DNA of 64,000 nt from an uncultured virus (IMG/VR IMGVR_UViG_3300019458_000025) (Duplodnaviria > Heunggongvirae > Uroviricota > Caudoviricetes): IMG/VR virus record IMGVR_UViG_3300019458_000025. One strand, given 5' to 3'. How positions within the stretch are numbered: position 1 is the stretch's first letter; every line of letters starts with the position of its first letter. The translations under genes were made by a program, and so were the position numbers. Shown piece by piece: positions 10,309 through 63,900 of this stretch. The notes under the pieces were generated by a model. The model made no database searches. It was not told where the DNA came from and saw nothing but the letters and a program-made list of their open reading frames with translations.

Positions 10309-10529
10309 GGTTCCTCCGTCAAGGGGACGTTTTCCGCCGGTGGGTCGTGCGCGGGAGGAGCGGACCGGCACTTTGAGCAGAGGAGATCCTCTGGTCTGGG
10401 CTCTCCATAGAGCCCGAGTTCGCAGGCCGACAGCGTGATGATGATCTCCGAACGGCAGCGGTAACACGGCCGGGTCAGGCGGATCTGTTTTTCGCTGAAA
10501 TTGATCGTCGGCTTCACGGCGTCCTCCAT
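10305..10529 (-). CDS. Zn-ribbon protein
   Basis: CYRC...CSKC. Confidence 0.6.
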   Translation of the reverse strand: MEDAVKPTINFSEKQIRLTRPCYRCRSEIIITLSACELGLYGEPRPEDLLCSKCRSAPPAHDPPAENVPLTEEP

Positions 10530-14535: not shown

Positions 14536-15254
14536 TCGACCGGCACCGGCGCGGGGACCCGGGCGAACGTGACCACCCAGACCCAGGGATGGGTGTCCCA
14601 GGGATGCTTCTTCTCGAACGGCCCCTTCGCCCAGCGGGTCCGGAACGCCTCGACCGGGCTTCGCTCCCAGTTCTTGTCGTCCTTGGGGATGCCGTACCAG
14701 CCGCAGTCACCGTCCGCGTGGACGATCTGGATGCCCTCGTGGGCGCAGTCGAAGGGGATGACCTCGGAAAGGCGCTCCACGCGGACGTCCTCGATCGCAA
14801 GGTCGATCCGGGACGCCCACCGGGGCATCTGAGCGGCCGAGCGCCACTTCCGGTAGAAATGCCACTCCTCTTCAAGCGATTGGCGATCGGCCGCGTACCG
14901 GAGATAGCGCCTGGCACGCTCGGTGCCGGGCTGGTCGAGAAGATCCTCCCGGGGCGCCCACTTCTCCTGCACCCAAAGCCGGTCTCCTTTTCGGCCGAAC
15001 GGAGAGAGCACGGGCTTCGTCCGGTCGTTCCAGGCTGCGTTGCGTCCGCGGCTACGGAGGACCCAGCCGCTCTCCGGGTTCGTCGTGTTGTAGAGTCCCG
15101 CTTCGAGCCCGGTGAACGAGAGGTTGAGGCCCTTTTCGAGGGGTTCCCAGCGGACCGGACGCCGGGTCTGGGTCATCGCGTCCTGGAGAATGAGCCCGAT
15201 GACGTCCGAAGGGAACGCGATCGGCCGCTCGACGACGACTTGGGCGTTTCCCAT
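14532..15254 (-). CDS. Conserved phage ASCH-like protein
   Basis: ERPI.F..TQTRR, PFG..GDRLWV.E.W, MPRWASRI.L.I.DVRVERL, PWVWV. Confidence 0.8.
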   Translation of the reverse strand: MGNAQVVVERPIAFPSDVIGLILQDAMTQTRRPVRWEPLEKGLNLSFTGLEAGLYNTTNPESGWVLRSRGRNAAWNDRTKPVLSPFGRKGDRLWVQEKWAPREDLLDQPGTERARRYLRYAADRQSLEEEWHFYRKWRSAAQMPRWASRIDLAIEDVRVERLSEVIPFDCAHEGIQIVHADGDCGWYGIPKDDKNWERSPVEAFRTRWAKGPFEKKHPWDTHPWVWVVTFARVPAPVPVE

Positions 15255-15377: not shown

Positions 15378-15420
15378 GCCGGTCGGGGCCCGAAGAGTCA
15401 ACTTCGGGCCCCGGACCGGC
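15378..15420. terminator. Long GC hairpin downstream of the vWA gene (terminator-like, no U-tract)
   Basis: GGGGCCCGAAG-AGTCAA-CTTCGGGCCCC, extended by GCCGGTC/GACCGGC. Confidence 0.5.
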
Positions 15421-15444
15421 TTGGCCCCGGCCCCACGCGCCGCC

Positions 15445-16239
15445 CTACGGCGTCCCGAAACCTCCCATCGCCGCCTGCGAGAAGCTGGCCGCGCCCTGGC
15501 TCGCGCGGACGGCGCTCTGGGAGAACACCTGGAACGCCTTCCGGATCTCCTTCTCGTTGTTCCCGGGCGTCAGAATCCACTCCTTCCGGACGCCCATCGC
15601 GTCGAAGACCTGGTGGAAGTCGGTACGGCCGTCGTCGATGCCCATCGCCGCGATGATGTGCTTCTCGCGCTTGAGCATGTCCTCGACGATCGCCCGAGCG
15701 TCGCGCGCGGAGCCGCGGGACCCCTCGTCATTCCCGTCCGTGATGATCGCCGTGATCGACCGGCAGGGGACGCCGCAGTCCTCGAACTCCTTGGTCTTGG
15801 CGAGGACGGTCCCCAGGATCACGACGGTCTGGTCGTAGAGCGGGGTCCCGCCGTTCGGGTTGTAGTTCTGGGCGTCCATCTTCTTGGCGTCGTCGATCTT
15901 GACGTACGGGAAAAGGACGTCTCCGTTCAGGTAGCGCGTGTGGACGAGGAGCGAGTCCTTCTGCTTTGTGCCGACGAGGGACGCGAGGACCAGGTTGTGG
16001 CCGTCCCGGACGAGTTGCGCGTTCTGCGCGAACCGGATCGACCCGGAGTCGTCGATCAGCATGGTCACGAGGACGACTTCCGCGGCCTGGACGTCCTCGG
16101 CGGCGACGCCGAGGCCCGCCTGGATCTGGGCGCCGATGTCGATCGCGCCGGTCAGCACCTGCATGGACGCCATCGAAAGGTCGCCCTCCTTGTGGGCGTT
16201 CTTGAGGAGGTCCGTCACGCTCGAAGAGGTCTTGCTCAT
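15445..16239 (-). CDS. vWA domain protein (TerY-like)
   Basis: MIDAS DDSGS, GGTPLYD, IITDG. Confidence 0.9.
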   Translation of the reverse strand: MSKTSSSVTDLLKNAHKEGDLSMASMQVLTGAIDIGAQIQAGLGVAAEDVQAAEVVLVTMLIDDSGSIRFAQNAQLVRDGHNLVLASLVGTKQKDSLLVHTRYLNGDVLFPYVKIDDAKKMDAQNYNPNGGTPLYDQTVVILGTVLAKTKEFEDCGVPCRSITAIITDGNDEGSRGSARDARAIVEDMLKREKHIIAAMGIDDGRTDFHQVFDAMGVRKEWILTPGNNEKEIRKAFQVFSQSAVRASQGAASFSQAAMGGFGTP

Positions 16240-16352
16240 TGGCCATTTCTCCTTGTCGAAAAGAAGACGGATACCGAAAACATCATCACGAACAGCATGA
16301 GGAAGAGCGCGACCCCCAGGGCCGCGCCTTCCGGATCTTCCGCCCGGTTCAT
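16236..16352 (-). CDS. 38-aa single-pass membrane micro-protein
   Basis: Manual translation MNRAEDPEGAALGVALFLMLFVMMFSVSVFFSTRRNGQ; stop overlaps the vWA ATG. Confidence 0.55.
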   Translation of the reverse strand: MNRAEDPEGAALGVALFLMLFVMMFSVSVFFSTRRNGQ

Positions 16353-16359
16353 GGTCTTC

Positions 16360-17418
16360 CTAGAGGCCGATGCCCTCCCAGTCCTCGATCGGGGTCGTGC
16401 TCTCGACGACGTGCATGCCCGCGTCGGCGAACTTCTTGAGGGCCTCGTCCGCCTGGGGCGTGAAGTCGGCGTAGAATCCGCCCTTCCCGTCCGGGACCGC
16501 GACCGCGCTCATGCAGTCCTTGAGGACATAGACCTTCTTGACGAGCTTCGGGTCCTGCGCGTTGATTGCCGTCAGGAGATCCTCGATCGAGGACTTGACG
16601 CAGTGGGAGGCCGCCTGCCCGGCGATGACGACGGCGTCGGCTTCGAGCAGGGTCTTGATGAAGCGGGTGTTCCGCTGCGCGATCGGCTTCCCCTCGTGCG
16701 TGGTCAGGACTTCCGGGGAGAGCACGCTGTAGTTCTCGGTGAGGAGGTTCCCGCCCTTGACCTCGACCCCGGCCGTCCCGGTCCGCGCGAAGGCGTGGAA
16801 GCTCCGGGCCTCCTCGATGACGCCGACCAGGGTGTGGCCGGAGGTCCCGAGCAGGCAGTGGTAGGGCCAGAGGTAGAGGTTGTACTTCCCGGCCTTCTCC
16901 AGCGTCTCGCAGTAGTGCCGGACGTAGGACATGAGCCAGCCGTAGTTCCCGCCGCAGACGATGGCGGCGACGGCGGGGTTCGGCTTCACGTTCCCGGCCC
17001 GGATCTCCTCGCTCTTGACGACGGTGTGCGGGGCGAGCGCCTTCCCGTCCTTGTCCTGCCAGAAGGACGGGAAGAAGATCTGGTGCCGGAAGTGCGTGTC
17101 CATGGTCGGCGTGATCTCCGTGATCACGCCCAGGTTCCGGTAGATGAACTCCGCGATCCTCTTCGAGTCCTCGATCGCCCCGTCGCCCTTCCGGCCGCCG
17201 ACGTAGAGCGTCCCCTTCGGGAAGCAGAAGTCCTTCTGGGCGTCGATGAGGAGGAGGTGGATCTTCGTCTTGTCGTGCGAGCCCGGCTTGATCCCGTGCT
17301 TCCTGGCCCAGGACACGGCCTCCTGCTCGATCTGGGCCTCGTCGGGCCCGTAGTTCCAGTCTTCGGCGTTCTTGGGCTTCCAGAACGGCGGGGCCGGGAG
17401 CTTGAGGGCGGTCACCAT
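16360..17418 (-). CDS. Nicotinamidase/isochorismatase-family cysteine hydrolase
   Basis: LIDAQKDF, TMDTH, WPYHC, EVKG, GQAASHCV catalytic and metal motifs; AAAGGAG RBS. Confidence 0.9.
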   Translation of the reverse strand: MVTALKLPAPPFWKPKNAEDWNYGPDEAQIEQEAVSWARKHGIKPGSHDKTKIHLLLIDAQKDFCFPKGTLYVGGRKGDGAIEDSKRIAEFIYRNLGVITEITPTMDTHFRHQIFFPSFWQDKDGKALAPHTVVKSEEIRAGNVKPNPAVAAIVCGGNYGWLMSYVRHYCETLEKAGKYNLYLWPYHCLLGTSGHTLVGVIEEARSFHAFARTGTAGVEVKGGNLLTENYSVLSPEVLTTHEGKPIAQRNTRFIKTLLEADAVVIAGQAASHCVKSSIEDLLTAINAQDPKLVKKVYVLKDCMSAVAVPDGKGGFYADFTPQADEALKKFADAGMHVVESTTPIEDWEGIGL

Positions 17419-17447
17419 GCGTTTTCTCCTTTCTTCCAGGCTTCCGG

Positions 17448-19316
17448 TCAACTGATCTTGAGAACCCTGATCTCGTTCCGATCGACGACGTACACGCCTT
17501 CCTTGCCCGCATGCAGGTGGCAGCTTGTGTCCACGAACGGCTCGGTGTCGGGAAACTCGGCCGTTTTCACAAGTGTGCTCATCTGTGGTTGGACCCGTAC
17601 TATACCATCGTCCGTAACCGACAAAAGGAAATTCCTGCCCGCGCATTTCCCTCGGATCTGGCCGAGCCAGGAGCCGTCGCCGGGCTCTCCCTCGGCCACG
17701 GCCTCGACGGTTCCGTTCGGCCGGATGAGATGGCAGCGGTTGACCGCGCGACCTCCGTCTCGGAGGGACGCCAAAAACCAGCAGGCGTCGCTCGTGAAGT
17801 AGGCGACCGCGTCCGTGAGATGGCCCTTGAGGGGCGGGATCTTGACGGTGTCGTTCAGGCCGCCGCGGTCCGCGTCGAAGACGAAGGCCATCGAAAGGTC
17901 CGCCGCCCGGTAAAACCCGAACCCGAAACGGGAGCCGACCCAGAAAAGGGTCTGGTTCTGGAGGACGTCCCCGATCCGCTGAGGCGCGAAAGCGTGCTCC
18001 CGGACGAGCACTCCGCCCTGGACCCAGTAGATCCTCCGTTCGTTCGCGTCGAAAACGTGCATTTTCCCGTACGGGTCCGGATAGATCGTCGTCTCGGGTT
18101 GTCCCGGGGTGAACACCGTGAGGGCATCCTTGTAGCTCATGAGCGAACGGGAGCCGGAGATCCGGTACCGCACCTTGACGGCGGCGTGTTCCTCCAGGAC
18201 GAGGCCCCCGTCCTCCCGCCGGAGATCCCGTGGGTCCTCGTAGAGCCACTTGAGTTCGCCGCCCTGGACGGTCGCGTAAAGGATCTGGCCGTTTGTCGCG
18301 AAGATCCTGGTCGAGGTCACCTTGCCCCTCACTTGGACGACCTGTTTGACCGCCTCCGGCGCCGCGCGCTTGCACGTCGGGCAGGCCGGGCGCCCGTGCT
18401 CGGTGCCGCAGGCCGTGCATGTCCTCCAGGCGAACGCTTCGAGGAGCCGGACGGGGAACGGCCCGCGCGCGTCCTTCTCGAAGACCCGGTGGAAATACGA
18501 AAGAAGCTCGTCCGGAAGCACCTCGTACGGGATCGCGGGCTTCGGGTACCTGACGTCCTTGTTGAAGACCGTGATCCGGCGGAGCGGGCGCTCGGCGTGG
18601 AGGACGTTCGTGGGCTGCTTGGGCTTGTAGACGCCCCCGTACGGGTCGCAGAGGACGAGCGACCGGAAAAGCATCACGGCAAAGGCGTACCAGTCGGAAT
18701 CCGCGGTGTGCGGCTTCACCAGGATCGGCCGGGTCTGCTTGGGGTCGCAGAGGAGCGGGTCCACGAACCGCTCCGTGAAGACCGTGCAGAGGAAGTTCGA
18801 GAACTGGAAGGAATCGGCGTCGATGAGATGCGCCTCGGTCTGGCGGACCATGACGTTCAAGTCGTTGAAGTCGCCGATCAGGACGCGCTCGGCGTGGACC
18901 CGCTCCACGGTCCGGTAGAGGTCGAGGAAGACGTCCTTGACGACGCCGTTTCCGATCCGGCCCTGCCGGAACGACCGCTCGGCGTAGCGGAGGAGGACTT
19001 CCGCCGCGTCGATGAAGGCCATCGTATAGCCCACGATCCTCTTCCCGGTGCGGTCGGTGGCAAGCTCCCGGGGCGAGACCACGCGGTCGGGCAGCGTCTT
19101 CGGGAAGGCCGGGAGCTTGTCCTGGTGGATCATGAGCCTGGCCTTGGCCGCGTCCATCTCGAACTTGTTCCCGGCATAGTCCGGATGGTCCGCGGGCTTG
19201 TAGACCTTGAGGACCGTGTCCGGGGCGATCCGGAAGACGTCGGCCTCTCCGCCCTTCCCCACCGATTGGGTCGGGTCGAGCCTGATCCGCCTACCCTGGA
19301 CGTAGACTTCGGTCAT
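17448..19316 (-). CDS. Ser/Thr protein kinase (TerY-triad type) with Zn ribbon and C-terminal beta-rich domain
   Basis: GKGGEA G-loop, VLK, IGDFNDLN, IDADS, CTAC..CPTC. Confidence 0.9.
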   Translation of the reverse strand: MTEVYVQGRRIRLDPTQSVGKGGEADVFRIAPDTVLKVYKPADHPDYAGNKFEMDAAKARLMIHQDKLPAFPKTLPDRVVSPRELATDRTGKRIVGYTMAFIDAAEVLLRYAERSFRQGRIGNGVVKDVFLDLYRTVERVHAERVLIGDFNDLNVMVRQTEAHLIDADSFQFSNFLCTVFTERFVDPLLCDPKQTRPILVKPHTADSDWYAFAVMLFRSLVLCDPYGGVYKPKQPTNVLHAERPLRRITVFNKDVRYPKPAIPYEVLPDELLSYFHRVFEKDARGPFPVRLLEAFAWRTCTACGTEHGRPACPTCKRAAPEAVKQVVQVRGKVTSTRIFATNGQILYATVQGGELKWLYEDPRDLRREDGGLVLEEHAAVKVRYRISGSRSLMSYKDALTVFTPGQPETTIYPDPYGKMHVFDANERRIYWVQGGVLVREHAFAPQRIGDVLQNQTLFWVGSRFGFGFYRAADLSMAFVFDADRGGLNDTVKIPPLKGHLTDAVAYFTSDACWFLASLRDGGRAVNRCHLIRPNGTVEAVAEGEPGDGSWLGQIRGKCAGRNFLLSVTDDGIVRVQPQMSTLVKTAEFPDTEPFVDTSCHLHAGKEGVYVVDRNEIRVLKIS

Positions 19317-19329
19317 CTTTCGGGCGCCC

Positions 19330-19800
19330 TTACCGGCCTCCGCACTTGCAGCCGCCGAGAAGGATGTCCCGGAGCGGGCAGGTGCATTTGCTCTGGTCCT
19401 TGACCTCCATCGCCTTCTTGGGCAGCCGCTCGAAGCTCTGGTCTTGGACGTCGAGCACCTTGATCTCCGGAGCCTGGGGCTTGTCCACGATCACGGTGTC
19501 CCCGGGCTCGACCCTCGGAATCCACATCCCGTTCTCGTTCTTCTTGAAGTCGAGCACCCGGCGGAGCAGGTCGGCCAGGCTCTCTCCCCGGTCGGCGCCC
19601 TGCGGGTTCTCGATCCCGCCCATCGGATGGACGAGCCCCCCGATCTGGTCGAGCGCGACCAGGCCCTCGCCGACCTTCTGGCCGTTCTGGTTGAATGACA
19701 CCGAGAGGAAATACTTGAGGCCGCACTGGTAGAGCGAGCAGGAGACCGAGACCGAATGGTTGTAGTCGGTCAACTGGACGTCCCGGCAGACTTCCCTCAT
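19330..19800 (-). CDS. Hypothetical protein
   Basis: ATGA-coupled to the phosphatase; Cys-rich tail. Confidence 0.6.
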   Translation of the reverse strand: MREVCRDVQLTDYNHSVSVSCSLYQCGLKYFLSVSFNQNGQKVGEGLVALDQIGGLVHPMGGIENPQGADRGESLADLLRRVLDFKKNENGMWIPRVEPGDTVIVDKPQAPEIKVLDVQDQSFERLPKKAMEVKDQSKCTCPLRDILLGGCKCGGR

Positions 19801-20627
19801 CCCATCCTCCTTCTCCGGAAAACCACGAGCGTGGCGTCGTCGGCGAGCGGTCCGTGCTCCTCGTGGACGGCCCTCCGGTCGTAGTCGATCCTCATGTAGT
19901 CCCGGTTGATGACGCGGAGGCGCCGCTGGATCGAGAAGGGGTTCTTGAAGTGGGCGTCGTTCTCCCAGAACTGGCTGATAAAGCCGATCGGCTCGTCCTT
20001 CCCCGGGACCTTCCGGTCGGACGCCTTGACGAGCGCGCCGAGACCGTCCGTCCCGATCAGGATCTGCCGAACGTCCCCCAACGCGAACGAGTTGACGACG
20101 GCCAAAGGAGGCGCTTCGACCGTCGAATCGACGAGGTCATAGGCGATGTAGGAGGGCTTGTTGTTCTCGCTCAGGATCTCGACCACGCGCTCGTTCGGGG
20201 CGATGACGCCGTCCCCGGCCACGAACGTGACCGTCCTCCATTCGGTCGCGACGACCCCGACGAGCGTGAAAAGGAAGTAGTCCGAGACCGTCTTCGAGTA
20301 GCTCCCGCCCATGGCGTCGGCGATGGAGGCGATCCGGGTGAGGATGCCCCTCCGGACGCGCGCGAGAGCCCCCGTCAGGACCGCGGGATCGGCCGAAAGG
20401 AGCGTGGGTTCGGCCTGGAATACCCGGAGCAACTGATCGACGGCGATCCGGGCGCCGATCTTCGCGCCCACTTCGCTATGCTCCCCGCTCGTACAGCCGT
20501 CCGCGACCACGCCCGCGACCACGTTCTTCGATGTCGCGATCGCGTAGGCGTCCTGGCAGTTCGTGAGCGCGTGCCGGTGGTCGCGCCCCGCGACGGAACC
20601 TCCGGCGATCTCGAACTCTTCCAGCAT
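19797..20627 (-). CDS. PP2C-like protein phosphatase
   Basis: G.SV.G..H...NCQD, VVADGC, GTDG, DDAT. Confidence 0.9.
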   Translation of the reverse strand: MLEEFEIAGGSVAGRDHRHALTNCQDAYAIATSKNVVAGVVADGCTSGEHSEVGAKIGARIAVDQLLRVFQAEPTLLSADPAVLTGALARVRRGILTRIASIADAMGGSYSKTVSDYFLFTLVGVVATEWRTVTFVAGDGVIAPNERVVEILSENNKPSYIAYDLVDSTVEAPPLAVVNSFALGDVRQILIGTDGLGALVKASDRKVPGKDEPIGFISQFWENDAHFKNPFSIQRRLRVINRDYMRIDYDRRAVHEEHGPLADDATLVVFRRRRMG

Positions 20628-20637
20628 GTCCTCAGCC

Positions 20638-20886
20638 CTACGGGGCCTCTCCCTTGACGATCTTCTCCAGGACGTCGATCGGCATCACCTTGCCGATATG
20701 CCACTTCCCGCAGAAGGCACAGGGATAGGGTTCGACATCGTGGTGGCGCTTGTCCCATCGGTTGTGGGCGTCGGCGCCCGCCCGCGCGGCCTCCTCGGTC
20801 TCGTAACGCTGCTTCCGGCCGCAGGTCTGCTGGGGTCCGGACTTCCTTCCCGCTTCGAGATGCAGGTTGTAGAGATAGGCGTCCAT
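20638..20886 (-). CDS. Small C..CxxC..H Zn-binding protein
   Basis: CGRK.RY...PYPCAFCGKWHIG. Confidence 0.7.
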   Translation of the reverse strand: MDAYLYNLHLEAGRKSGPQQTCGRKQRYETEEAARAGADAHNRWDKRHHDVEPYPCAFCGKWHIGKVMPIDVLEKIVKGEAP

Positions 20887-20894
20887 CGGATCAC

Positions 20895-22334
20895 TCAGAT
20901 AAGACCCACCTTCATTCCACGAAGATCCTCAAGGAGGCGGTGACGGAGAGCCTTGGTCTGGCTGCTTAGCTCGACCATCGGGTAATCCTGGTTCCAGAGT
21001 TCCCCGGCCGGGCTGTCGTTTCCGGTGAGCCGGACATAGCCCTGCGGGGCCGTCTCGTCCTCCTGGGCGATGATCCCGATCGGTCCGTTCGCCGAGGTCC
21101 GGCGGAAGACCACGGGACGCCCGGGAAGGCTCTCCTTGCCGCCGCCCCGTTCGTTCGCGAACTTCATCGTGGGGTAGGGCCCGGTCTGGCAGAGCTTGTA
21201 GACCGCGCTCACGCGGTCCCGAGTGAGCGACGTGAAGGCCGGGGCCGAGACGAGGGCCCGCCCGTACCCGTAAACCTGGGCGTCTTCGGGGACGCCGACC
21301 TGAATCCGGGTCGTCTCGAAGGCCGCGGTCTTCTCGGCGTCGAGTTCGTCCTCGAAGATATGGACAGGGGACAGGCCGCGTTCCTTGGCCTGGGTCACCA
21401 TGTAGAGGTACTGGGCGAGCTTGTCGCCCGAATCGTACCGGACGGAGTCCCGGCGTCCGGGCTCCTCCTCCATGAGCTTGAGCGCGGCCGGTATCCCCGA
21501 GAGGTACGTGTCGTAGGTGTCGAGGAGATAACTCGACCGGTAAGGACGCCGGTCGCGCATCGCGCGGAACGCGGCCTCGTCCGATCCGTAGCGCTGGACG
21601 TGCTCGTGGCCCATGGTCCCGACCGGCGTCATCGAGAACTTCTCGGCCAGGAAGACGTTCGAGGTCCGCTTGATCCCGACTTCCCGGCATGCCTGGAGCG
21701 CGATCGCGTGCTGTTCCGGGCAGGTCGCCGAACGGAGGCCGACCTCGAAGACGCGGTCGGCGCTCGCCGCGGAAAGGATGCGCTTGGCGTGTTCGACGAC
21801 GTTTTTGTAGTAGCCCTCGGGATCGGCGACGATCTCCGGACACGGGAGGCCGATCGCGTCGAGCGTCTCCCGGACGATCTCGACCTCCTGGGGACATGTC
21901 ACCGTCCGAAGTTCCTTTGAGAAGAGGTCGCGATCGAACCGGGCAAGCGTCGCGACCTGGATGCGGTATTGAAGTTGAAGGACGAGCGGCTCAAGCCAGG
22001 AGACGAGCGCAGAGGGACCCGTCACGGAGAAGACCGGTTCGCGGGGATAGAAGACCGAGCCTTTGGGGATCGCCCGGACATCGAGCCTCCGGCGCTGGCC
22101 GATGGCCGTCCGGAACCCGATCCCCATTTCGTACTCGTGGTCGGCGAGATAGCGGGCATTGTCCTCGGTCATCGCGGGCAGGAGGCCGCGGACGAACTTA
22201 TCGACGTCCACGGGGAGGATCTGGGGGCCACCCTTCCGGTGGCAGTAATAGAAGATCTCGGTACGGAGCGGCCAGCCGACCTCCGCCATCGAGAACTTGT
22301 AGCCGTCCGTTTCGAGAACCGAGCGCGCGGCCAT
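20895..22334 (-). CDS. pncB: Nicotinate phosphoribosyltransferase (PncB-like)
   Basis: TDGYKFSM, FEVGLR, TSNV...PVGTMGHE, LDTYD, VRYDSGD, VYKL. Confidence 0.85.
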   Translation of the reverse strand: MAARSVLETDGYKFSMAEVGWPLRTEIFYYCHRKGGPQILPVDVDKFVRGLLPAMTEDNARYLADHEYEMGIGFRTAIGQRRRLDVRAIPKGSVFYPREPVFSVTGPSALVSWLEPLVLQLQYRIQVATLARFDRDLFSKELRTVTCPQEVEIVRETLDAIGLPCPEIVADPEGYYKNVVEHAKRILSAASADRVFEVGLRSATCPEQHAIALQACREVGIKRTSNVFLAEKFSMTPVGTMGHEHVQRYGSDEAAFRAMRDRRPYRSSYLLDTYDTYLSGIPAALKLMEEEPGRRDSVRYDSGDKLAQYLYMVTQAKERGLSPVHIFEDELDAEKTAAFETTRIQVGVPEDAQVYGYGRALVSAPAFTSLTRDRVSAVYKLCQTGPYPTMKFANERGGGKESLPGRPVVFRRTSANGPIGIIAQEDETAPQGYVRLTGNDSPAGELWNQDYPMVELSSQTKALRHRLLEDLRGMKVGLI

Positions 22335-22358
22335 GATCTCCTCTTCCAGGCTGCACAG

Positions 22359-22387
22359 ATAATAACACCTGTTAACAGCCGAGTCAA
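22359..22387 (-). promoter_or_regulatory. Sigma70-type promoter for the NAD/vWA operon
   Basis: TTGACT-17-TATTAT, then CTGTG and a GAGGAG RBS. Confidence 0.8.
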
Positions 22388-23148: not shown

Positions 23149-23847
23149 TCACTCGGCCTTCTCCTGCTTTCTCAAGATCCTCGTCCCATGGCTTCGGAGC
23201 TTGGCCAGGATGGGCTCGCCGATCAGGCAGATCGCGCCCTTCTTCGTCGTAAGCGAAGTGATCACTTCCTTCCCGTTGACGTGGATCGACACCTGGTCCA
23301 GTTCGTTGACCGGCGTCCAGAAGCTGAGGTTGTCGAACAGCGTCTGGACCGGGAGGATTCCTGGATCGCCGCTGTCCGGTTCCCTTTTCTGGACGCTGTC
23401 CCGGCACGCGATTTCCATGGCCGAACGAAGCGCGGGGATGTCGATCTTGCAGTCGAGGAGAGCCTTGTGCGCGATGCCTTCCGTAAGGAAGGGTCCGTCC
23501 TCTTCGAGGAGGCCGAGAACGAGTTCCGCGGTCCCGACGACGTTCGTACCGAGCCGATACCCGTGCTCGCGGGCGATCTCGATGACGCGCTTGAGCCGGG
23601 GCGCCATAGGGCGTTCGATCGCCGCATCCAGGGTGTCCGAGGGCGAGACCTGCCTCCGGACTGATTCCTCGATCTTCCCGGCGTCGATCCGAAGCCGGGC
23701 GAACACCCGTTGCGCGACGCACCCTTCCTGGTGGAGGATCGCCAGAAGCAGGTGTTCCGTGCCGACGAACTCCTGCTTGTGCTCGATGCACAACCTTCTC
23801 GCCGTCGAGAGGACGTCGCGGGCGCGTTCGGTGAAATCTGCGAACAT
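23149..23847 (-). CDS. Stand-alone Clp N-terminal (Clp-R) domain protein
   Basis: FTERAR.VL..A...VGTEHLLLAIL and a second repeat VGTAELVLGLL; no AAA module. Confidence 0.9.
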   Translation of the reverse strand: MFADFTERARDVLSTARRLCIEHKQEFVGTEHLLLAILHQEGCVAQRVFARLRIDAGKIEESVRRQVSPSDTLDAAIERPMAPRLKRVIEIAREHGYRLGTNVVGTAELVLGLLEEDGPFLTEGIAHKALLDCKIDIPALRSAMEIACRDSVQKREPDSGDPGILPVQTLFDNLSFWTPVNELDQVSIHVNGKEVITSLTTKKGAICLIGEPILAKLRSHGTRILRKQEKAE

Positions 23848-40150: not shown

Positions 40151-42908
40151 TCATTCATTGTTGGCCTTCTTTGCGCGTTCCACGTTTTCAACGTCACGCT
40201 TGGCGCGCTTCAAAGTTTCGGCCGTCCGCCTTTCCAGGTATTCGAGGATGACCGTGCGGTTATGCCAGATGAAATCCTCGTACTTCCTGAGACCGTTGCA
40301 AGGACACCCGATCACGGCCTGCTTGCCGTCGATGGTGCCCCAGGAGATCATGTCGTAGGACGGGTCTTGGATGTACTTCTCCGGGTTGTTCTTCGCCTTC
40401 TCTAGAAGCTCTTCCAGTTCCCCTTCCCCGTAGATTCCGCTCTCCATCGTCGCGAAATGCGTGCGCCCGCAGAGTTCGCAGTCGATGACGAGCGAGCCTG
40501 CATTGATGATCACGCGCTCGAAGAGTTCGCTGGGCGGTTTCGGATCGTCGGCCATGGATCTCCCCCTTCTATTTCGCAGGAACCTTCTTCGCCAGCCGGT
40601 CGGCCAGTTGAAGAGCGTAGCCTCCGAAATCGTTCACGCTCGTCCGGTGTTCCTCGTTCCATGCCAGAAGCGCGTCGCCCTGAAGAGGCTCCTTCGCCCG
40701 GTCGCGGTGGATCATGAACGTGCGGAGGCTCGTGATTAGCTCCTCGCGATGCCGGTCGAGGGCTCCCTTCATCGGCTCCCCGAACTGCTTCTCGAAATCG
40801 GCCTCCGGATCTCCGCCGATGATGTAGAAGCCGGTCATCCACTCGTCGCGCTTGGCCGGGGTCTGGCCGCGCCCGACGAGGAGCGAGACCAGGAACGCGA
40901 TCTTGTCGGACGGAGCCGCGAACGTCCAGGCGTCGCTCGGGTTAACAAGCTCGTAGATCATGTTCACGTTCCATCTCCTTGAGCGCCTCGTTCGTGACCT
41001 TGATGATCCGGAGGCTCTTCTTGGTCTCGTCCTCGCGGTAGCAGTTCACATAGGGATGCGGCCCGTTGTTCAGCCAGACCTTGCCGCCGAAACCGAGCGC
41101 CCCGCAGAAACGGTACTCCAGCGTGCGCGCGCGCCCGTACTCGTCCGCCTGGATCACGAACATCTCCCGGCCTCGCTCTTCGGCCCCGGCATGCTGGACA
41201 AGGATGTCCCAGATCTTCGAGAGGCGCTCCTTGTCGAGCCTGCGCATGCGGTTCCATTCGCCGTAGGCCATGAGCTTCGCCTCGGACCCGCCCCAAACGT
41301 GCTCGATCTCGTCGGACTCCCGGCCGCACTTCGGACAGACGGCCTTGGCGCCCATGAGATCCTCGGCAAGCCGGTAGACCGAGGCATCCGGGAAGCTGCC
41401 GCAGGAGCATGGCAGGACATCGACCTTCGTCATCGGCTCGCCCCCTATTTCCTGCGGCGAAGGCAAAGCGTGTACGTATCCCACTGGTCTTTCGGGCCGA
41501 GGACGATGATCTTCCCATTCGCCTCCAGCCTTCTCATGCAGAGCTTGACCGCCAGGTGCATCGACCCGGGCTTTTTCTTGTGCCGGGCTTCCAGGTAACG
41601 GGCGATCCAGTCGGCCCCAGCCTGGTGGTTGATGGCGTCCTCCAGGATGGCAAGGATCGTCTCCTCCGTGGCGATGGGAGTCGTCATGCGGTCGGTTCTC
41701 CCCACGAAATGAGAGGATGTCATCGGTCCACTCAGGGCTGATAGAGCCTCAAACCGAGTTTCCGGCACTTCTCGATGGCCTCGGCGCTGTCTTTCACGGG
41801 CCCGAGGCCGATCTTGTCTTCGAGGCCGATCGTACACCATCCGCTCCGGTGGGCGTTCAGGTGGGACCGGCAGTAGACCCATTCGCCGAAGATCACGTCG
41901 TCGGCGAGTTTCTCGTCCCGGGTCTTCACCCTGCCACGGATCGCCTGGGCCGCGCAGGACCCGCAGGCTTGATGGCCCCAGAGCCCGTGGACGCAGAGCC
42001 GGTTCTTCTCCGAGTAGGCCCGCGTGGGCTCGTCGGGCGCGACGATACGGTCGCAGGACTCCGCGAGGTCGGCGCAGGCCGCGCGCTCGGCCGCGAGATC
42101 TGAGTTGTGCGCTGCCACGACCGCTCCCGCCTGTTCCGCGGTGAGACCGGTGACGACGCCGTTCGAGGTTCGGACGAGGAAACCCAGCTTGTCCGAGTTC
42201 TCCACGACCCAGGGACGGAGATCTACAGGCACCGGATGATCTCCCCGGCGATGACGTCGGCCGCGTTCTTGACCACGTTCTTGTCCGGGACGTTCGCGTC
42301 AACGGCCTGCTTCCCGACATTTGCGGCGATCGTAGCGCACCGGTCCCGGGTGTCCCGGACCAGGCGCCTGAGGTCGGCCAGCAGGTTGCATTCGTGGACG
42401 CCCGAGGGGTGATCCGCGGCAGGACACCACTGAGCCGCGATCGCCTCCGGCGTCAGGATCTCATCCTTTGGCGCAGATTGGGAAGCGAAGGAATTAGGCG
42501 CCCGCCGGGCGATGTCCGGGACGCCCCGGCATGGTTCGGCGCCGATCGCGTTTGCGAATTCCTTGGGGTCCACGCGGGGCGCCTTCTTGCCGACGACGTT
42601 GATCCGTTTCTCTCGTTTCATGGCTACTGGTTCTCCGGGACCCGGATGGAGTTCCAGCCATTGCCATCCGGAGCCAGTTGGAACTCCCCCTTGTTGACGT
42701 ACTCGATCTTCTTCGAGAAGCAGACCGCGCAATGGCAGTTGTTGGGAGAATAGGAGTACTGGAACGTGTCATGGATGAACTTCGCAAGCCCCTTCGCCGC
42801 GAACAGGGCTCCGGCGTGGTGTTCGGCGGAAGGCGCCATCGTGCCGTCGATCCAGCGGCCGGTTTCGGCCAGGAGCGTATGAACGATGTGGGCCGCGTCG
42901 GGACTCAT
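40151..42908 (-). other. Run of hypothetical CDS: 40151..40555, 40569..40967, 40942..41433, 41445..41688, 41732..42232, 42223..42621, 42624..42908
   Basis: Tightly coupled ORFs, several with CxxC pairs. Confidence 0.6.
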
Positions 42909-43945
42909 GCGCGCGCCTCCTGGGCCAGGCCGTTCACTTCGATCGCCTGCCTCATCCAGTGTCCGTGCGTCTGGACGTGGCCTTTCCGGACGACCTTCCC
43001 GACGACGTTCCGGTAGTCCTTGAACGGGAAAGCCCGCGAGATCCGGACCACGTAGCCCTCGCATGGGTCGCCCGCATGCTCGTGGGGCTCGAAGTCGCGG
43101 AGCCGCGTTTCGTCCCAAACCCCGCGCCAGAAGACCGGGACGGTCTTGAGTCCGAGAAGCTCCGCATACTCCTGGGTCTCGTCCCAGGAGAGGCAGACGT
43201 TCCGCTCGTTCCAGATCGAATGGACCAGGAAGTGGGCCGGAAGAGTCCGGTACCGGATGGAATGGACCGCGTAGAGGTTCTCGCCGCACACACGCCATCC
43301 CTCCGGGATCTCGTGGCCGATCGTCCGGTGGATCTTCCAGAGCCAGTCCCGGGACGGATGGGGCGGAGAGTCGATCGACCGGGCGTGAAAGCCGTCCCGG
43401 TAGAGGCTCGTCTGCTCGCCGTCCATCTTGACCGTGACGACGACGTCCTCGCTCTCGAACCCGGCGACCGATTCCATCATGCGGTCGTCGTCGGTCCCGC
43501 CAGGGCTCCAAGGGAGATGATAGGTCCGGGGATGCTTCACCCGGTTCGTGAAGAGATGGAGGACCGGCGCGATCACCTTCTGGACGCTCTCGTCGTAGAA
43601 TAGCTCTCCGCGGAGGCGTCGGCCGTTTGGAAGGATCGGGTCCCCCCACTTGTCATAGACCTCGTCCGGATAGAGATGGGGCGGCAGGATCACGCGCTCG
43701 ATTCCGGCTGCCTTCCGGACGTCCTCGCAGGAGAGCACCGTGGACTCCGCCGCCAGATGGTGCTCTTGGCAGACGGAGACGCCGTTATCGAGGTAGGTGC
43801 CGCCGTCCGGCCAGAGCCTGCGCTCGACGATATGATGCGCATCCTTGGCCGGAGCGCCGCAGACCACGCACTTATGGCCGTCGCGCTCGAAGACCGCGGT
43901 CCGGAACTCGTCCCGGGTGAGCAGGCCCCCGCTCTCGGGCGTCAT
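42905..43945 (-). CDS. HNH nuclease-like domain fused to an RNA ligase (Rnl2-like)
   Basis: FERDGHKCVVC..DAHHI..N.V.VC..HH; K.PRT.HLPWSPG, KMDG, CGEN, EGYVVR, K.VR. Confidence 0.9.
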   Translation of the reverse strand: MTPESGGLLTRDEFRTAVFERDGHKCVVCGAPAKDAHHIVERRLWPDGGTYLDNGVSVCQEHHLAAESTVLSCEDVRKAAGIERVILPPHLYPDEVYDKWGDPILPNGRRLRGELFYDESVQKVIAPVLHLFTNRVKHPRTYHLPWSPGGTDDDRMMESVAGFESEDVVVTVKMDGEQTSLYRDGFHARSIDSPPHPSRDWLWKIHRTIGHEIPEGWRVCGENLYAVHSIRYRTLPAHFLVHSIWNERNVCLSWDETQEYAELLGLKTVPVFWRGVWDETRLRDFEPHEHAGDPCEGYVVRISRAFPFKDYRNVVGKVVRKGHVQTHGHWMRQAIEVNGLAQEARA

Positions 43946-49425: not shown

Positions 49426-50298
49426 TTACGGGCGCGCTCGACCGGACCGGCCCGCGGGGGAAGCGACTGCTTCATCTTGGGCGTTGACGAAGCGGTTCGC
49501 CTCATGATCGCCCTTCGTGTTCTTGAGGAAGAAGGGGAGCCCAGGAAACCGATAATCCGCCCATCGGTCGAATAGCTCCGGGTACTTGCCCATGATGAAC
49601 GAGTCGAGGAATAGCATTCCCGGGTCTTCCGTCATCGCCCAGAGCTTGTCGAGCACCTGCTTGGCCACGTCCGGCGTGAAGTACCCGAGGAAGTTCCGGC
49701 AGACGACGAGGTCGTACACCCGCTGGGGAGAGGCGTCATTCACCGGGGCGAAGACGTCGGCCTCCTCGAACACCAGATGCCTCATGATCTCGGGAGCGAC
49801 GGTCGCCGTGACGTAGCGCGGCATCCCGGAGATCGGGATCTTCCCGCTCCGGGCGACCTCGATCGAGGCGCGCTGAATGTCGTAGCCCGAAATCGTGAAG
49901 TCCTGGAGGCCGTTCTCCTTGAACTCGATCGCGAGGCTCACGGATTCCTCGCCATGCGAACACGGCAGGCTCAGGATCTCGGGAGGCCGGTGCTTCGCGA
50001 GAAAACGGAGGAACGGGATCACGCGGGACCGGAGGCAGCGCATCTCCTCGGTCTCGAACCGCATCATCGAGGTCTCGTTCGTGATCAGGTTCGCCCGGAG
50101 CTTCTCCTTGAGCGTCATCCGGTTCCAGGCGTAGTGTCCGGCCCAAAAGGCGCCCCTGGAATCCGCCAGCAGCGACTCAAGGGCCCCGACGCTCTGGGCC
50201 AGGTTCACCCTCTCCAGAAGCTCCGAGATGTACCTGGATTCCGGGTCGAGTCGTTTGGACTCGGCTTGGATAAATGCTTTGACATCATCGAGTGTCAT
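49426..50298 (-). CDS. CheR-type protein-glutamate methyltransferase-like protein
   Basis: TNETS..R, SLPCSHGEE..SLAI, GYDI....IEVARSG, YDLVVCRN.L.YF. Confidence 0.85.
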   Translation of the reverse strand: MTLDDVKAFIQAESKRLDPESRYISELLERVNLAQSVGALESLLADSRGAFWAGHYAWNRMTLKEKLRANLITNETSMMRFETEEMRCLRSRVIPFLRFLAKHRPPEILSLPCSHGEESVSLAIEFKENGLQDFTISGYDIQRASIEVARSGKIPISGMPRYVTATVAPEIMRHLVFEEADVFAPVNDASPQRVYDLVVCRNFLGYFTPDVAKQVLDKLWAMTEDPGMLFLDSFIMGKYPELFDRWADYRFPGLPFFLKNTKGDHEANRFVNAQDEAVASPAGRSGRARP

Positions 50299-52070: not shown

Positions 52071-52095
52071 GCGGACCCTCCTCTTCCTGGCACAG

Positions 52096-52125
52096 ATGTT
52101 AACAGTCGTGGGCCGTTCGCGTCAA
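52096..52125 (-). promoter_or_regulatory. Sigma70-type promoter (GTTAACATCTGTG family)
   Basis: TTGACG-18-TAACAT-CTGTG, then GAGGAGG. Confidence 0.7.
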
Positions 52126-52460
52126 GGAGAAACGGCGCGCTCCGGAGGTTCCGGACGGTCGTCCAGGATCACGATCTCGATCCGCATCCTCGGCCCCCCG
52201 AACGCCTTGATGACCGAGGGAATGTCGGCAAGCGCGGCCTTGAGCCACTGGTTCGCGGTCTGCATGGACCAGAGCGAAGCGGTGATCCGGTGGGTGCTCG
52301 ACAGGAGCTTCTGGACGATGAGCCCGTAGAGAGGAGGGATCTCCTTCTCGGGGATCTTGAGCCCCTTCGTGTACTCGATCAGATTCTCGAAAAGCTCCTG
52401 AGCGTGCCTGTCCAGGCGCGCGCGCATTTCGTCCCGTTCATCCGGCATCCATCCTCCGAT

Positions 52461-54329: not shown

Positions 54330-54635
54330 CTACGCCTTGTTGTAGCCCTCGACTCCACGGGCCTCCCGGTCGGCCTTGCGATGGCTCAGCCAATGAAGGG
54401 CCTCTTCCAGCATCGTGATCGCCAGAGAATTCTCCCGACACCGGAAGGGAGCGCCCTCGCGGTTGAAGCCGTTCAGCCGGTCGATCAGGATGCGAACCAC
54501 ATCGGTAATCTGGCATCCGTTCACGCCAAACTCCTTCACCGGCCCGAGTTGGAACTTGATCTTGATGTGCTCGCGCTCGATCAGAGCGGGGCTTCCGTCC
54601 ATCTGCTCCTGCGCCTTCTCGCGGTCGTCCATCAT
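54330..54635 (-). CDS. Tad1-like anti-defence signalling-nucleotide sponge
   Basis: I.FQ.GP.KE.GVNG..D...I.IDRL..F...PF.CREN..A.T.LEEALHWL..R..DR..RGVEG matches the Tad1 family pattern as I recall it. Confidence 0.75.
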   Translation of the reverse strand: MMDDREKAQEQMDGSPALIEREHIKIKFQLGPVKEFGVNGCQITDVVRILIDRLNGFNREGAPFRCRENSLAITMLEEALHWLSHRKADREARGVEGYNKA

Positions 54636-58741: not shown

Positions 58742-58904
58742 CAACTCACCGCCTTTTCGTCGCCGTCCCTGGGGCGGCGCTTTCCGCAGGCGCATTCGCG
58801 GGTCTTGACGCCGTCGATGGTCCGGCGGATCATCATCCCGCAGCGCGGGCAGTAGAGGATCTCCTGGGACTTCCGGCGGCTGTCGGGCTTCCTCATCTTC
58901 ACAG

Positions 58905-58933
58905 ATGTTAACGGATGTGGACGCCCGTGTCAA
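58905..58933 (-). promoter_or_regulatory. Sigma70-type promoter (GTTAACATCTGTG family)
   Basis: TTGACA-17-TAACAT-CTGTG. Confidence 0.75.
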
Positions 58934-58986
58934 GCGAAAAACGCGGTGTCGTTCCGCAGCTTTCCGGTGGGACCGTTATGGAGCGC

Positions 58987-61566: not shown

Positions 61567-63160
61567 TCACCGCCAATGCCACGCGATATTGCCCATCCGG
61601 TTGAGCTTCTCGCGCATCCACTTCTCGATCAGCTTCCAGAACGGACCCCGACGCCACCACGGCGCTTGTAGATGCCGGACGTATTCCCGGATGAAGTCTC
61701 CAGCGGGTGCCTCATGTCGCTCCATCTTGATCGTGATCCTGGGCTTTCCTTCGACGTTCACGAGCACCGCGGGGACGTCCTCGATCGCCCCGGTCGCCCA
61801 ACGAGTCTCCCATTCGGTGATGGTCATCACGCCTCCTCGGCTTTCGGTGCATGGAGCGTACCGACGTAGACTGCGATGACACCGAAACCGCCGAATGGCT
61901 CCGGATCGCCCGGCGCCCCGACTTCGAGGAAGAAGCATTCGGTCGCCCGGATCTTCCTGGGCGCGGTCCAGGACACGCACGGAAGCTTCCGTCCGTTGAC
62001 GAGCGCGAGAAGATCCTTCGCGCGGTCCCGGTCATAGGGGTGCGCCGGTTCAGGAAGCGGGATGTGCCGGACGTCCTCCGGGGCGGCGAGCTTCGTGTGG
62101 ACGCTCTGGCCGAAGTGGTCCACGACGCCGCCGAGCGGATACCAGCCATCCCGTTCGAGAGGCGTCGCGATGCGCCTGAGCCTTTCGTCGTCCTCCGGAT
62201 GCTCGCAGTAGATCCGGATCTCCTCCCGCTCGAAGTGAAGGGGATAGGTCAACTGGGAGTCCATGGTCATGTTCGTCCAGGTCCAGTCCCGGTCGTGGTT
62301 AGGTCCCTTCCGGGGCGCCTTCCCCTGGCGTTCGAGGTTCCAGATCGAGGCCGTGAAGAACTCGGTGAGGCACGATTCGACCTTGGCGCGAGACCAGAGG
62401 AGCCCAGGGGTGTAGGCTTCGAGATCCGGCTCCCTGTAGCGATAGGTCAGTTCGTTGACGACCTCAAGAATTCTCATCCGTTCGAGCGCGTCCATGTCCA
62501 TGAGCCGGAGCGCCATGTTCCGCGCATCCCCCTGGAGGTCTTCCATTTTCATGGGCATTGGACCCTCCTCTCTTAGCTCGTGACCTGGATCGCCGACGTG
62601 ACGAGCATTTCGTGGACCGCGGCGGCGTGGCAGTCGTGCAGATAGGCGCCGACGTGCGCGCGGTGGCAGTAGCGACCGGTCGCGTCCCGGACCAGTTCCT
62701 GGCCCATCTCGCAGCGCTTGCAGATCCTCGGGATGAGGTAGTGACGCTCGTGGTCGCGCACGTTCTGGTTGAGATGGAGGAGCGCCTGTCCGACGCGGCA
62801 TCGGAGGCTTGCCGTGGGTTCGCCGCGTTCGCAGGGACCCCCGTTGACCCCGGCCGTGCAGAGGTCGTCGTGGAATCTGCGGATGATCTCGAACCAGTCA
62901 GTTCCTTGTTCGGGCACCGAATCCCCCTCGTCAGGCTCTCCTCAACGGCGGCTGTACATCAACGCGACAAGAACGGACGGCACCGTCATGATGAAGCCCA
63001 TTGCGGCCCACTTGATCCGGACCGGGCTCTCGGCGAACCAGGACAAGAACCTGAAGAGCACGAGGAGGAGTACCAGGAGGATCGGGACTCCGATCGAGCA
63101 CCACACCCCGATCGTGCCGCTCCGGAGTTCCCGGTCGTTCACGCCTGCCCGGCCATTCAT
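61567..63160 (-). other. Run of hypothetical CDS: 61567..61830, 61827..62558, 62573..62917, 62942..63160 (membrane)
   Basis: Coupled ORFs. Confidence 0.6.
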
Positions 63161-63900
63161 GCCGCGCTCCCGCGAAGCCCTCGGACCTGAAGCACCCAGT
63201 CGTTCAGGAACCCGCGATCCCCCTCCGCCGGGATCGGCCAGGGTTTCATGCCGTCGATCTCGTTGATGAGCGAGAGCGTCGTCTCGACGATCCGCTCCTT
63301 GGACCACTCGCTCCGCCGGATCTGCATGAGGATGTCGCGCTCGCCGCCTTCCTTCCAGACGAGAGGCGGTTGGCCCTTGGCGATCCGGCGCGCGTCCCAG
63401 CCCAGCCGGATCATGTGGTAGGCCCACTTCTCGTTGTATTCGCCGCCCTTCGTGTGGAGACCTCCCTTTCCCCCGTGGGCCGAGAACTTCTTCAGTTGGC
63501 CCTGCATGTACCCGAGGTACTGCTTGACCGATTCGGCTGTCAGGAAGCGCTGGCGCTCCTTCCGGAGGGGCTCCCATTTCGGGTCCGCCCAATAGAGCCG
63601 GTCGGTGAAGAGCATCTCGATGATGCCCGGATTGCCCTTGAGGAGGAGGTTCGCGAACTTCCCGACCTCGTGGACCTGGTAGTCCGGCTTCTGGGCTTCC
63701 GGGTTGTCGATCGTGTCCGGGGGCGGCGAGAGCCCGAGGAGGTCGTGGTTGAAGGCCACGTAGACGGCCACGTAGTCGATGTCGCTCGTCTCGATCTGGG
63801 TGTTGTGGCTCCAGGAGCCCCAGATCTTGGAGAAGATCGTCCAACCGCGGAGCATCGGGGCCTTTTCGAGCCAGCCGGTGGGGTTCAGATCCTTAGACAT
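63157..63900 (-). CDS. Pol-beta-superfamily nucleotidyltransferase (YcgL/RlaP-like)
   Basis: WGS..H......SDID, KF..LLLKGNP..IEML, K.AYHMIRL. Confidence 0.88.
   Translation of the reverse strand: MSKDLNPTGWLEKAPMLRGWTIFSKIWGSWSHNTQIETSDIDYVAVYVAFNHDLLGLSPPPDTIDNPEAQKPDYQVHEVGKFANLLLKGNPGIIEMLFTDRLYWADPKWEPLRKERQRFLTAESVKQYLGYMQGQLKKFSAHGGKGGLHTKGGEYNEKWAYHMIRLGWDARRIAKGQPPLVWKEGGERDILMQIRRSEWSKERIVETTLSLINEIDGMKPWPIPAEGDRGFLNDWVLQVRGLRGSAA

Follow-up and report, generated by a model that had tools for sequence, protein, structure and literature searches.

The stretch of DNA analyzed here, a window of 64,000 nucleotides (nt), covers bases 62001 to 126000 of one 132,523-bp IMG/VR record (IMGVR_UViG_3300019458_000025), classed as a linear virus with an estimated completeness of 76%. 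It carries a minus-strand run of eight open reading frames (ORFs), with intergenic gaps of -4 to 29 nt, in which two putative enzymes of nicotinamide adenine dinucleotide (NAD) salvage, a PncA-like nicotinamidase and a PncB-type nicotinate phosphoribosyltransferase (PRTase), sit with a Ser/Thr kinase, a PP2C-type phosphatase, and a von Willebrand factor A (vWA) protein (Table 1). The promoter, the eight same-strand ORFs, and the hairpin described in a first-pass annotation of this DNA were all confirmed in the sequence. The unit conserved among related loci is PP2C-kinase-PncA-vWA (hereafter the cassette) and not the whole operon; PncB is a variable add-on from three clades.

Table 1. Operon features, numbered by position in the window
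Feature	Position	Strand	Basis or remark
sigma70-type promoter TTGACT-17-TATTAT (22387-22359)	22354..22387	-	one of a 4-copy promoter-like motif of the record
PncB-type nicotinate phosphoribosyltransferase, 479 aa	20895..22334	-	TIGR01513, PDB matches, alignment, fold search
small Cys/His protein, 82 aa, passenger	20638..20886	-	PHROG 15216/14788, function unknown there
PP2C-type Ser/Thr phosphatase, 276 aa	19797..20627	-	Pfam PF13672, E 2.5e-20
orphan ORF, 156 aa, passenger	19330..19800	-	no family match
YegI-related Ser/Thr kinase, 622 aa	17448..19316	-	motifs; YegI blastp E 9e-13
long-form nicotinamidase (PncA-like), 352 aa, start 17418	16360..17418	-	Pfam PF00857; fold search
hydrophobic ORF, 38 aa, passenger; stop overlaps vWA start	16236..16352	-	sequence; 2-member cluster
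TerY/YegL-related vWA protein, 264 aa	15445..16239	-	MIDAS; family HMM
G+C-rich hairpin 3' of the last gene, without U-run	15378..15420	-	folding z-score

Salvage enzymes and signaling triad

The hydrolase is predicted to deamidate nicotinamide as a member of a divergent, long subfamily of nicotinamidases. The catalytic residues D59, K221, and C273, together with H109 and H187, are kept in 20 of 20 aligned members, and D107 of the D-x-H metal site and W184 of the WPxHC motif in at least 90% of them; we take the catalytic roles of the D59, K221, and C273 positions to be those of PncA structures. A structure model (pLDDT 94) returned nicotinamidases as all of its top 10 PDB matches in Foldseek, and biuret and maleamate amidases ranked lower. 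With a complete nicotinamidase site and closest folds that are all nicotinamidases, the initial assignment to PncA is upheld.

The PRTase carries Y12, E197-x-G-x-R201, T224-S225-N226, H243, D272, R299-x-D301-S302, and K380, of which the phospho-histidine H243, R299-x-D301-S302, the stacking residue Y12, and D272 are invariant in its alignment. Its matches to curated families stay below their cutoffs (NCBIfam TIGR01513, E 2.9e-39, 135 bits, cutoff 297; PF04095, 20.0 bits, cutoff 20.8). PDB matches favor Enterococcus faecalis and human NAPRT (E 1e-14) over NAMPT (E 0.05), the top fold matches of its model are E. faecalis NAPRT, and profile scores reach 74 bits for B. subtilis-type PncB and 19 bits for Nampt. 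At the site aligned to D208 of KVP40 Nampt the enzyme has S225; Asp stands there in the 5 Nampt/Namat rows listed and Ser in 26 others, as read by profile alignment and motif spacing (in the MAFFT alignment behind the tree, the Nampt sequences are displaced here by three columns). This Asp-to-Ser change is described as a difference between NAMPT and NAPRT (PMC10907753), and Asp219 as the specificity residue of NAMPT (PMC7096376). The NAMPT_N domain (PF18127) had no match in 26 members of the PRTase family at E 0.5, and no PRPS-like (Adps) gene turned up in the PHROG and Pfam scans of the record. Judged by the traits of Nampt and Namat (NAMPT_N domain, HDFGxR motif, amide-site Asp, Adps or Nmnat partner), the enzyme does not belong with them. 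In a phylogeny built with FastTree alone (8 redundant rows dropped), its clade falls outside the 100%-supported Nampt/Namat clade. This clade is deep, and its named members are mostly myxobacterial, 56 to 60% identical, and annotated in their sources as nicotinate phosphoribosyltransferase. In a sample of 151 genomes from a single bacterial phylum, 3 have a close relative, which lies beside NrtR in all three and beside the same PncA family in two. Phylogeny and profile searches had been suggested at first pass to separate PncB from Nampt and Namat; the Ser at the Asp site, the profile scores, and the folds all point to PncB.

The metal-binding motifs of the PP2C phosphatase (Q25-D26, D43-G44, G138-D139-G140, D194-G195, D263-D264) are invariant in 12 aligned rows, and blastp against Escherichia coli PphC was not significant. 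The kinase domain contains K37, G148-D149-x-N151, and D166-x-D168 and is followed by an invariant four-Cys (CxxC..CxxC) zinc ribbon at residues 300 to 315; in E. coli YegI, K39 and D141 are required for activity and DSD replaces DFG (bioRxiv 819920). The C-terminal ~300 amino acids of the kinase are predicted to form a beta-propeller, with Atlas neighbors that include PQQ/WD40-type proteins, mostly below the bar for naming and so a lead only. The vWA protein has a metal ion-dependent adhesion site (MIDAS; D63-x-S65-x-S67, T132, D168) and an invariant C-terminal S240-x-S242. It had no Pfam match; searched against three sequences, its family hidden Markov model (HMM) matched YegL of E. coli with E 1.9e-8. 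Catalytic residues are invariant across the family alignments, and the motifs, the MIDAS included, are intact. Since a MIDAS-bearing vWA protein, a PP2C phosphatase, and a YegI-like kinase are linked here, we regard the triad as TerY-P-like with a different kinase tail; the TerY-P architecture recognized at first pass is borne out by the linked, intact genes and by the homology of the kinase to YegI and of the vWA protein to YegL.

Conservation of the cassette and of the downstream route

Scanning viral contigs yielded 262 PncA relatives, and the top 80 were retained. Of 16 kinase loci, 5 were added (the other 11 repeated records already included), which gave 84 loci in 67 PncA groups at 90% identity. 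Counts refer to genes within ~10 kb, found by tblastn with few queries, and some loci are cut by contig ends. On this basis the vWA gene accompanies 59 of the 67 groups, the kinase 59, PP2C 52, and all three 51. PncB is present in 25 (E. coli-type in 20, the clade of this PRTase in 4, B. subtilis-type in 1), NadE in 20, NadD in 8, and Nampt in 1. The earlier view of the whole operon as a unit coupling NAD salvage to the triad therefore survives for PncA plus the triad and not for PncB, which is variable. PncA and the triad remain linked in each of two divergent subfamilies and in two different gene orders. Three huge phages in GenBank (462 to 595 kb) carry PncA, vWA, and kinase genes, two of them with a PP2C match, and several huge phages have further genes inserted among the four. 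The closest relatives follow the pattern of this record: a PncB of the same clade lies ~6 kb upstream of PP2C (G164), an E. coli-type PncB lies elsewhere (G001), or none was found (G165). In two related phages (L039:9960-10000, L059:5485-5520), a near-consensus sigma70 site stands a few bases before the PncB start codon.

The first-pass annotation had suspected similar bacterial loci, and the four-gene cassette does occur in bacterial metagenome-assembled genomes (MAGs). All four genes are present at 14 of 30 MAG loci with PncA (two being near-copies from one MAG), in the same order at 13 of the 14, and PncB belongs to the locus in 10 of these 14. Recurring neighbors are NrtR, NadE, NAD kinase, ADP-ribosylglycohydrolase, radical SAM, and Band 7 genes. 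Two near-identical contigs of 106 to 108 kb from a Woesearchaeota MAG (L008/L009) also hold the cassette, accompanied by PARP, radical SAM, and E. coli-type PncB genes, at 59% G+C; these may be mis-binned phage DNA.

PncA is associated more closely with the triad than with PncB, and its bacterial copies stand beside the ADP-ribose sensor NrtR; the triad therefore likely gates PncA. The enzymes might instead salvage nicotinamide while the triad serves other targets in TerY-P-like stress or anti-phage signaling, the two sharing only an NAD/ADP-ribose regulon. TerY-P triads are indeed linked to many unrelated systems, some of them stand-alone anti-phage systems (PMC10542128), the PncA family occurs without a triad in many bacteria, and the genes inserted among the four in several huge phages would fit separate functions. 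We nevertheless hold this alternative to be unlikely, as the association of PncA with the triad spans both subfamilies and both gene orders and is tighter than that of PncA with its pathway partner PncB. PADLOC 2.0, moreover, gave no convincing model match (weak unrelated matches only, E 0.004 to 0.008, with the presence of TerY-P models in the set unchecked). A complex prediction for PncA and the vWA protein scored 0.00, which speaks neither for nor against binding.

The operon was at first called self-contained, and this does not hold: NadD and NadE had no match on this incomplete record, nor did the CTP-transferase family, and NadE and NadD-like genes had none in the three closest relatives, estimated to be 97, 90, and 92% complete. 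Given these absences, host NadD and NadE likely complete the route, which fits the reliance on host enzymes that the same annotation had considered. In 35 whole virus records, from those behind 36 of the 84 loci picked by hand for length, the NAPRTase family was matched in 23, NadE in 22, and the CTP-transferase family, which is wider than NadD, in 23. By our tally, PncB or NadE is found in 28 of the 35 and all three downstream families in 14. NAMPT_N was matched in 0 of the 35. This zero is not a blind spot, as the same search recovers KVP40, Felix O1, and the sole Nampt-bearing cassette locus; for jumbo phages at large, the reported share with NadV is 33% (PMC9503650). As the 35 records are relatives of one another, the absence of Nampt alongside the cassette is no formal test. 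Destruction of their substrate by PncA would account for the lack of Nampt and Namat.

The same pattern could arise if the cassette removed nicotinamide on demand, either starving co-infecting phages or relieving product inhibition of the phage's own ADP-ribosyltransferases, with PncB recovering the by-product. PncA and the triad are fixed while PncB varies, the Nampt/Namat domain is absent from all 35 records, and the targets of such starvation would be the NAD+ reconstitution pathways NARP1 (Adps plus Namat) and NARP2 (Nampt plus Nmnat), both of which consume nicotinamide (bioRxiv 2024.02.11.579819). PARP and KptA genes, furthermore, lie near 2 and 5 of the 67 groups, respectively. This record, however, has no PARP or KptA match, the bacterial copies accompany NrtR, NadE, and NAD kinase, and of the whole records 28 carry PncB or NadE and 14 all three downstream families. 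The absence of Nampt is also predicted by a deamidating route that rebuilds NAD+. We consider nicotinamide removal improbable as the primary role.

The record, its promoter, and other genes

We interpret the record as part of a jumbo phage genome. About 219 genes, mainly small, are predicted on it by the gene caller. Library scans of 202 called genes against PHROGs and 132 against Pfam matched RNA ligases, TROVE, HNH nucleases, single-stranded DNA-binding protein, and comparable phage-type accessory genes, with no housekeeping set among the genes scanned. Outside the window, 45 tRNA genes including tRNA-Sec, and a tmRNA, occupy record positions 14816 to 46621 (G000:C1; L001-L003). These and the entry as a virus in IMG/VR answer the question of whether the contig is viral. 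The nearest cassettes belong to virus records of 235 to 266 kb (PncA identity 73 to 74%), one of which (G001) has Gp23 capsid matches and a comparable tRNA array directly after its cassette.

An alternative origin is the recent capture of an entire bacterial stress operon, or a chromosomal contig. Such an origin would account for the presence of these four genes, identically ordered, in bacterial MAGs, where PncA is up to 66% identical, and for the lack of any capsid, terminase, or sheath match on the record (Terminase_6N, Gp23, and sheath families; PHROG and Pfam scans). The missing terminase is little informative, because the terminase family likewise missed near-complete relatives. Against this origin stand the viral traits above and the nearest cassettes, which are viral and closer in identity; the record has no NrtR match, passenger ORFs are interleaved with the conserved genes, and the closest bacterial cassettes have a PncB of another clade. 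The promoter, too, belongs to a motif of the phage itself. Together these make recent capture or a chromosomal contig exceedingly improbable.

TTGACT-17-TATTAT is the sole sigma70-like site in window positions 10 to 28 kb and, since shuffles average 2.2 such sites, this lone consensus match is not above chance. A longer motif, TTGAC-N16-20-TTAnnATCTGTG, has 4 copies in the 132.5-kb record, each 4 to 22 nt before a predicted gene, compared with 0 to 1 copies in 20 shuffles; this control is partly circular, because the pattern was derived from those same sites. With its four copies before genes, the operon promoter looks like the phage's own promoter class. The other three copies, TTGAC-N17-TGTTAnnATCTGTG, lie at window positions 52091-52130 and 58900-58940 (-) and at ~10350-10388 (+) of the record (G000:C1), with a small gene directly after each.

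The 82-, 156-, and 38-amino-acid ORFs had no match in any of the 84 related viral loci and were therefore rejected as parts of the system; the 156-amino-acid ORF belongs to no family and, among 48 candidates, had no homologue besides itself. The hairpin folds with a z-score of -3.8, matched by 0 of 200 shuffles. It was ruled out as an intrinsic terminator, as it lacks a U-run and is not among the terminator-like sites predicted.

Elsewhere on the record are a second, canonical Ser/Thr kinase (L001:16747-17619, -) and a second vWA protein (L002:3299-4879, +), a 45% identical homologue of which directly follows the cassette in G001. A 291-amino-acid protein (L001:9210-10085, +) matches a ubiquitin-conjugating (E2) domain at E 7e-9 and directly precedes the TROVE/Ro60 gene. 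Two RNA ligases and an RlaP-type nucleotidyltransferase (window 42905-43945 and 63157-63900; L005:6182-6949, -) likely form an RNA repair set. A CheR-like methyltransferase and a stand-alone Clp N-domain protein (window 49426-50298 and 23149-23847, -) and a UVR protein, presumably McsA-like (L002:7660-8157, +), are also present.

Proposed role and relation to known systems

We consider it somewhat probable, on balance, that the operon salvages nicotinamide by PncA and PncB, that the host finishes NAD+, and that the triad acts as a phosphorylation switch tied to PncA. Host RNA polymerase would likely transcribe the operon from the phage's promoter motif. PncA would deamidate the nicotinamide set free when NAD+ is cleaved, giving nicotinate, a chemistry expected from its family; PncB would likely join nicotinate to phosphoribosyl pyrophosphate (PRPP) to give nicotinate mononucleotide (NaMN), which host NadD and NadE would convert to NAD+. 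The kinase, with its propeller or zinc ribbon as the sensor, would phosphorylate the C-terminal serines of the vWA protein, with S240 and S242 as candidate phosphosites, or PncA itself, and PP2C would reset the system. The purpose would be to sustain NAD+ during infection, whether NADases of the host or NAD-using enzymes of the phage itself drain it. Judging from its genes, the cassette may help the phage to keep NAD+ up when the host destroys it. In favor of a possible anti-defense role, jumbo phage PA5oct upregulates host pncA-pncB1-nadE (PMC7318152), and the record has a possible signal-sponge anti-defense gene. This gene (window 54330-54632, -; 100 amino acids) has a weak Acb2/Tad1 match (24.7 bits, cutoff 27) and a PHROG 2428 match at E 3e-25.

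Several observations weigh against this reading. As a counter to NADases the route is long and needs both PRPP and host enzymes, and E. coli, which has PncA and PncB, is still protected by SIR2-type NADases. No PncB lies within 10 kb in 42 of the 67 viral groups, and 7 of the 35 whole records match neither the NAPRTase family nor NadE; the core is thus able to exist apart from the route. The complete triad is missing at 16 of 30 bacterial loci with this PncA family, and PncA as a kinase target is inferred from gene order. The PRTase falls under every curated family cutoff and has no second Arg in its GxRR motif, and FastTree sets its deep clade next to Nampt, a placement flagged as a long-branch join. 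PncA is only 14 to 19% identical to solved nicotinamidases, ~140 amino acids longer with large insertions, and scores 20.6 bits on NCBIfam PRK11609 (cutoff 174). Such divergence could mean that the long PncA-like protein cleaves another amide and that its link to NAD salvage is indirect. The metal site and Cys nucleophile are present, however, biuret and maleamate amidases rank lower in the fold search, and PncB and NrtR are directly adjacent in bacteria, all of which make a different substrate very improbable.

A bolder proposal is that huge phages possess a fourth, deamidating and signal-gated strategy of NAD+ reconstitution, in which the triad switches PncA on upon NAD+ breakdown, synthesis proceeds via NaMN and nicotinate adenine dinucleotide (NaAD), and NARP1 and NARP2 are excluded by destruction of their substrate. 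We offer this tentatively, as a possibility that is rather doubtful at present. NAD+ depletion is a common bacterial defense, and the three proven phage answers are all amidated; judged by sequence, the deamidating route is frequent among huge phages. The near-absence of Nampt and Namat alongside the cassette points to two alternative strategies of phages for one substrate. The fixed nicotinamidase link gives the poorly understood TerY-P-like triad a concrete, assayable output and, if the proposal is true, phosphorylation control of NAD salvage would be common to phages and bacteria.

No paper on the PncA-triad cassette was found, which subscription articles and spreadsheet supplements might cover, and the available parts of PMC9503650, PMC13464706, and bioRxiv 2024.02.11.579819 contained no mention of nicotinamidase. 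In this widespread and apparently undescribed cassette, half of a known salvage route is combined with a signaling triad that is likewise known. The half-route belongs to salvage I (Preiss-Handler), PncA-PncB-NadD-NadE, which includes NrtR regulons (PMC2330246). Shared with it are PncA and PncB with intact sites and bacterial relatives adjoining NrtR; here, by contrast, only the first two steps are encoded, NrtR is absent from the record, and a long PncA lies within a kinase/PP2C/vWA unit. Nor is a deamidating phage route new. Clusters of NAD-jumbo phages are already in print from sequence (PMC11662467; Kuafu_71, pncB-nadD-nadE, in the text; Zhurong_5, pncA-pncB-nadE, in Fig. S7), and the annotation of Bacillus phage G lists all four enzymes (gp275/277/281/283). 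These phages share large size, clustered deamidating salvage genes, and functions assigned from sequence, and differ in that NadD and NadE are lacking here. The portion of the PMC11662467 supplement examined contained no PP2C or vWA terms, and the stretch of phage G had no triad match.

The same annotation named NARP1 and NARP2 as the described phage pathways; both are amidated, as it said, and the list is outdated, since NARP3 (PnuC plus NadR) has been added (PMC13464706). All three, like this cassette, rely on phage-encoded enzymes to supply NAD+ synthesis with precursors or with the products of NAD+ breakdown. They are amidated, two-gene, complete, and shown to beat NADase defenses, whereas the cassette is deamidating, partial, triad-linked, and known from its genes. 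With TerY-P and YegL-PphC-YegI (PMC10542128; bioRxiv 819920) it shares a vWA protein, PP2C, and a YegI-type kinase with a GD..N loop and DxD in place of DFG, a zinc ribbon after the kinase domain, here followed by the predicted propeller of ~300 amino acids, and a Ser-rich C-terminal helix of the vWA protein; no Ter genes were seen in the loci scanned. It is set apart from TerY-P by a nicotinamidase as fixed fourth member, by the order PP2C-kinase-PncA-vWA, and by a kinase that ends in a predicted beta-propeller.

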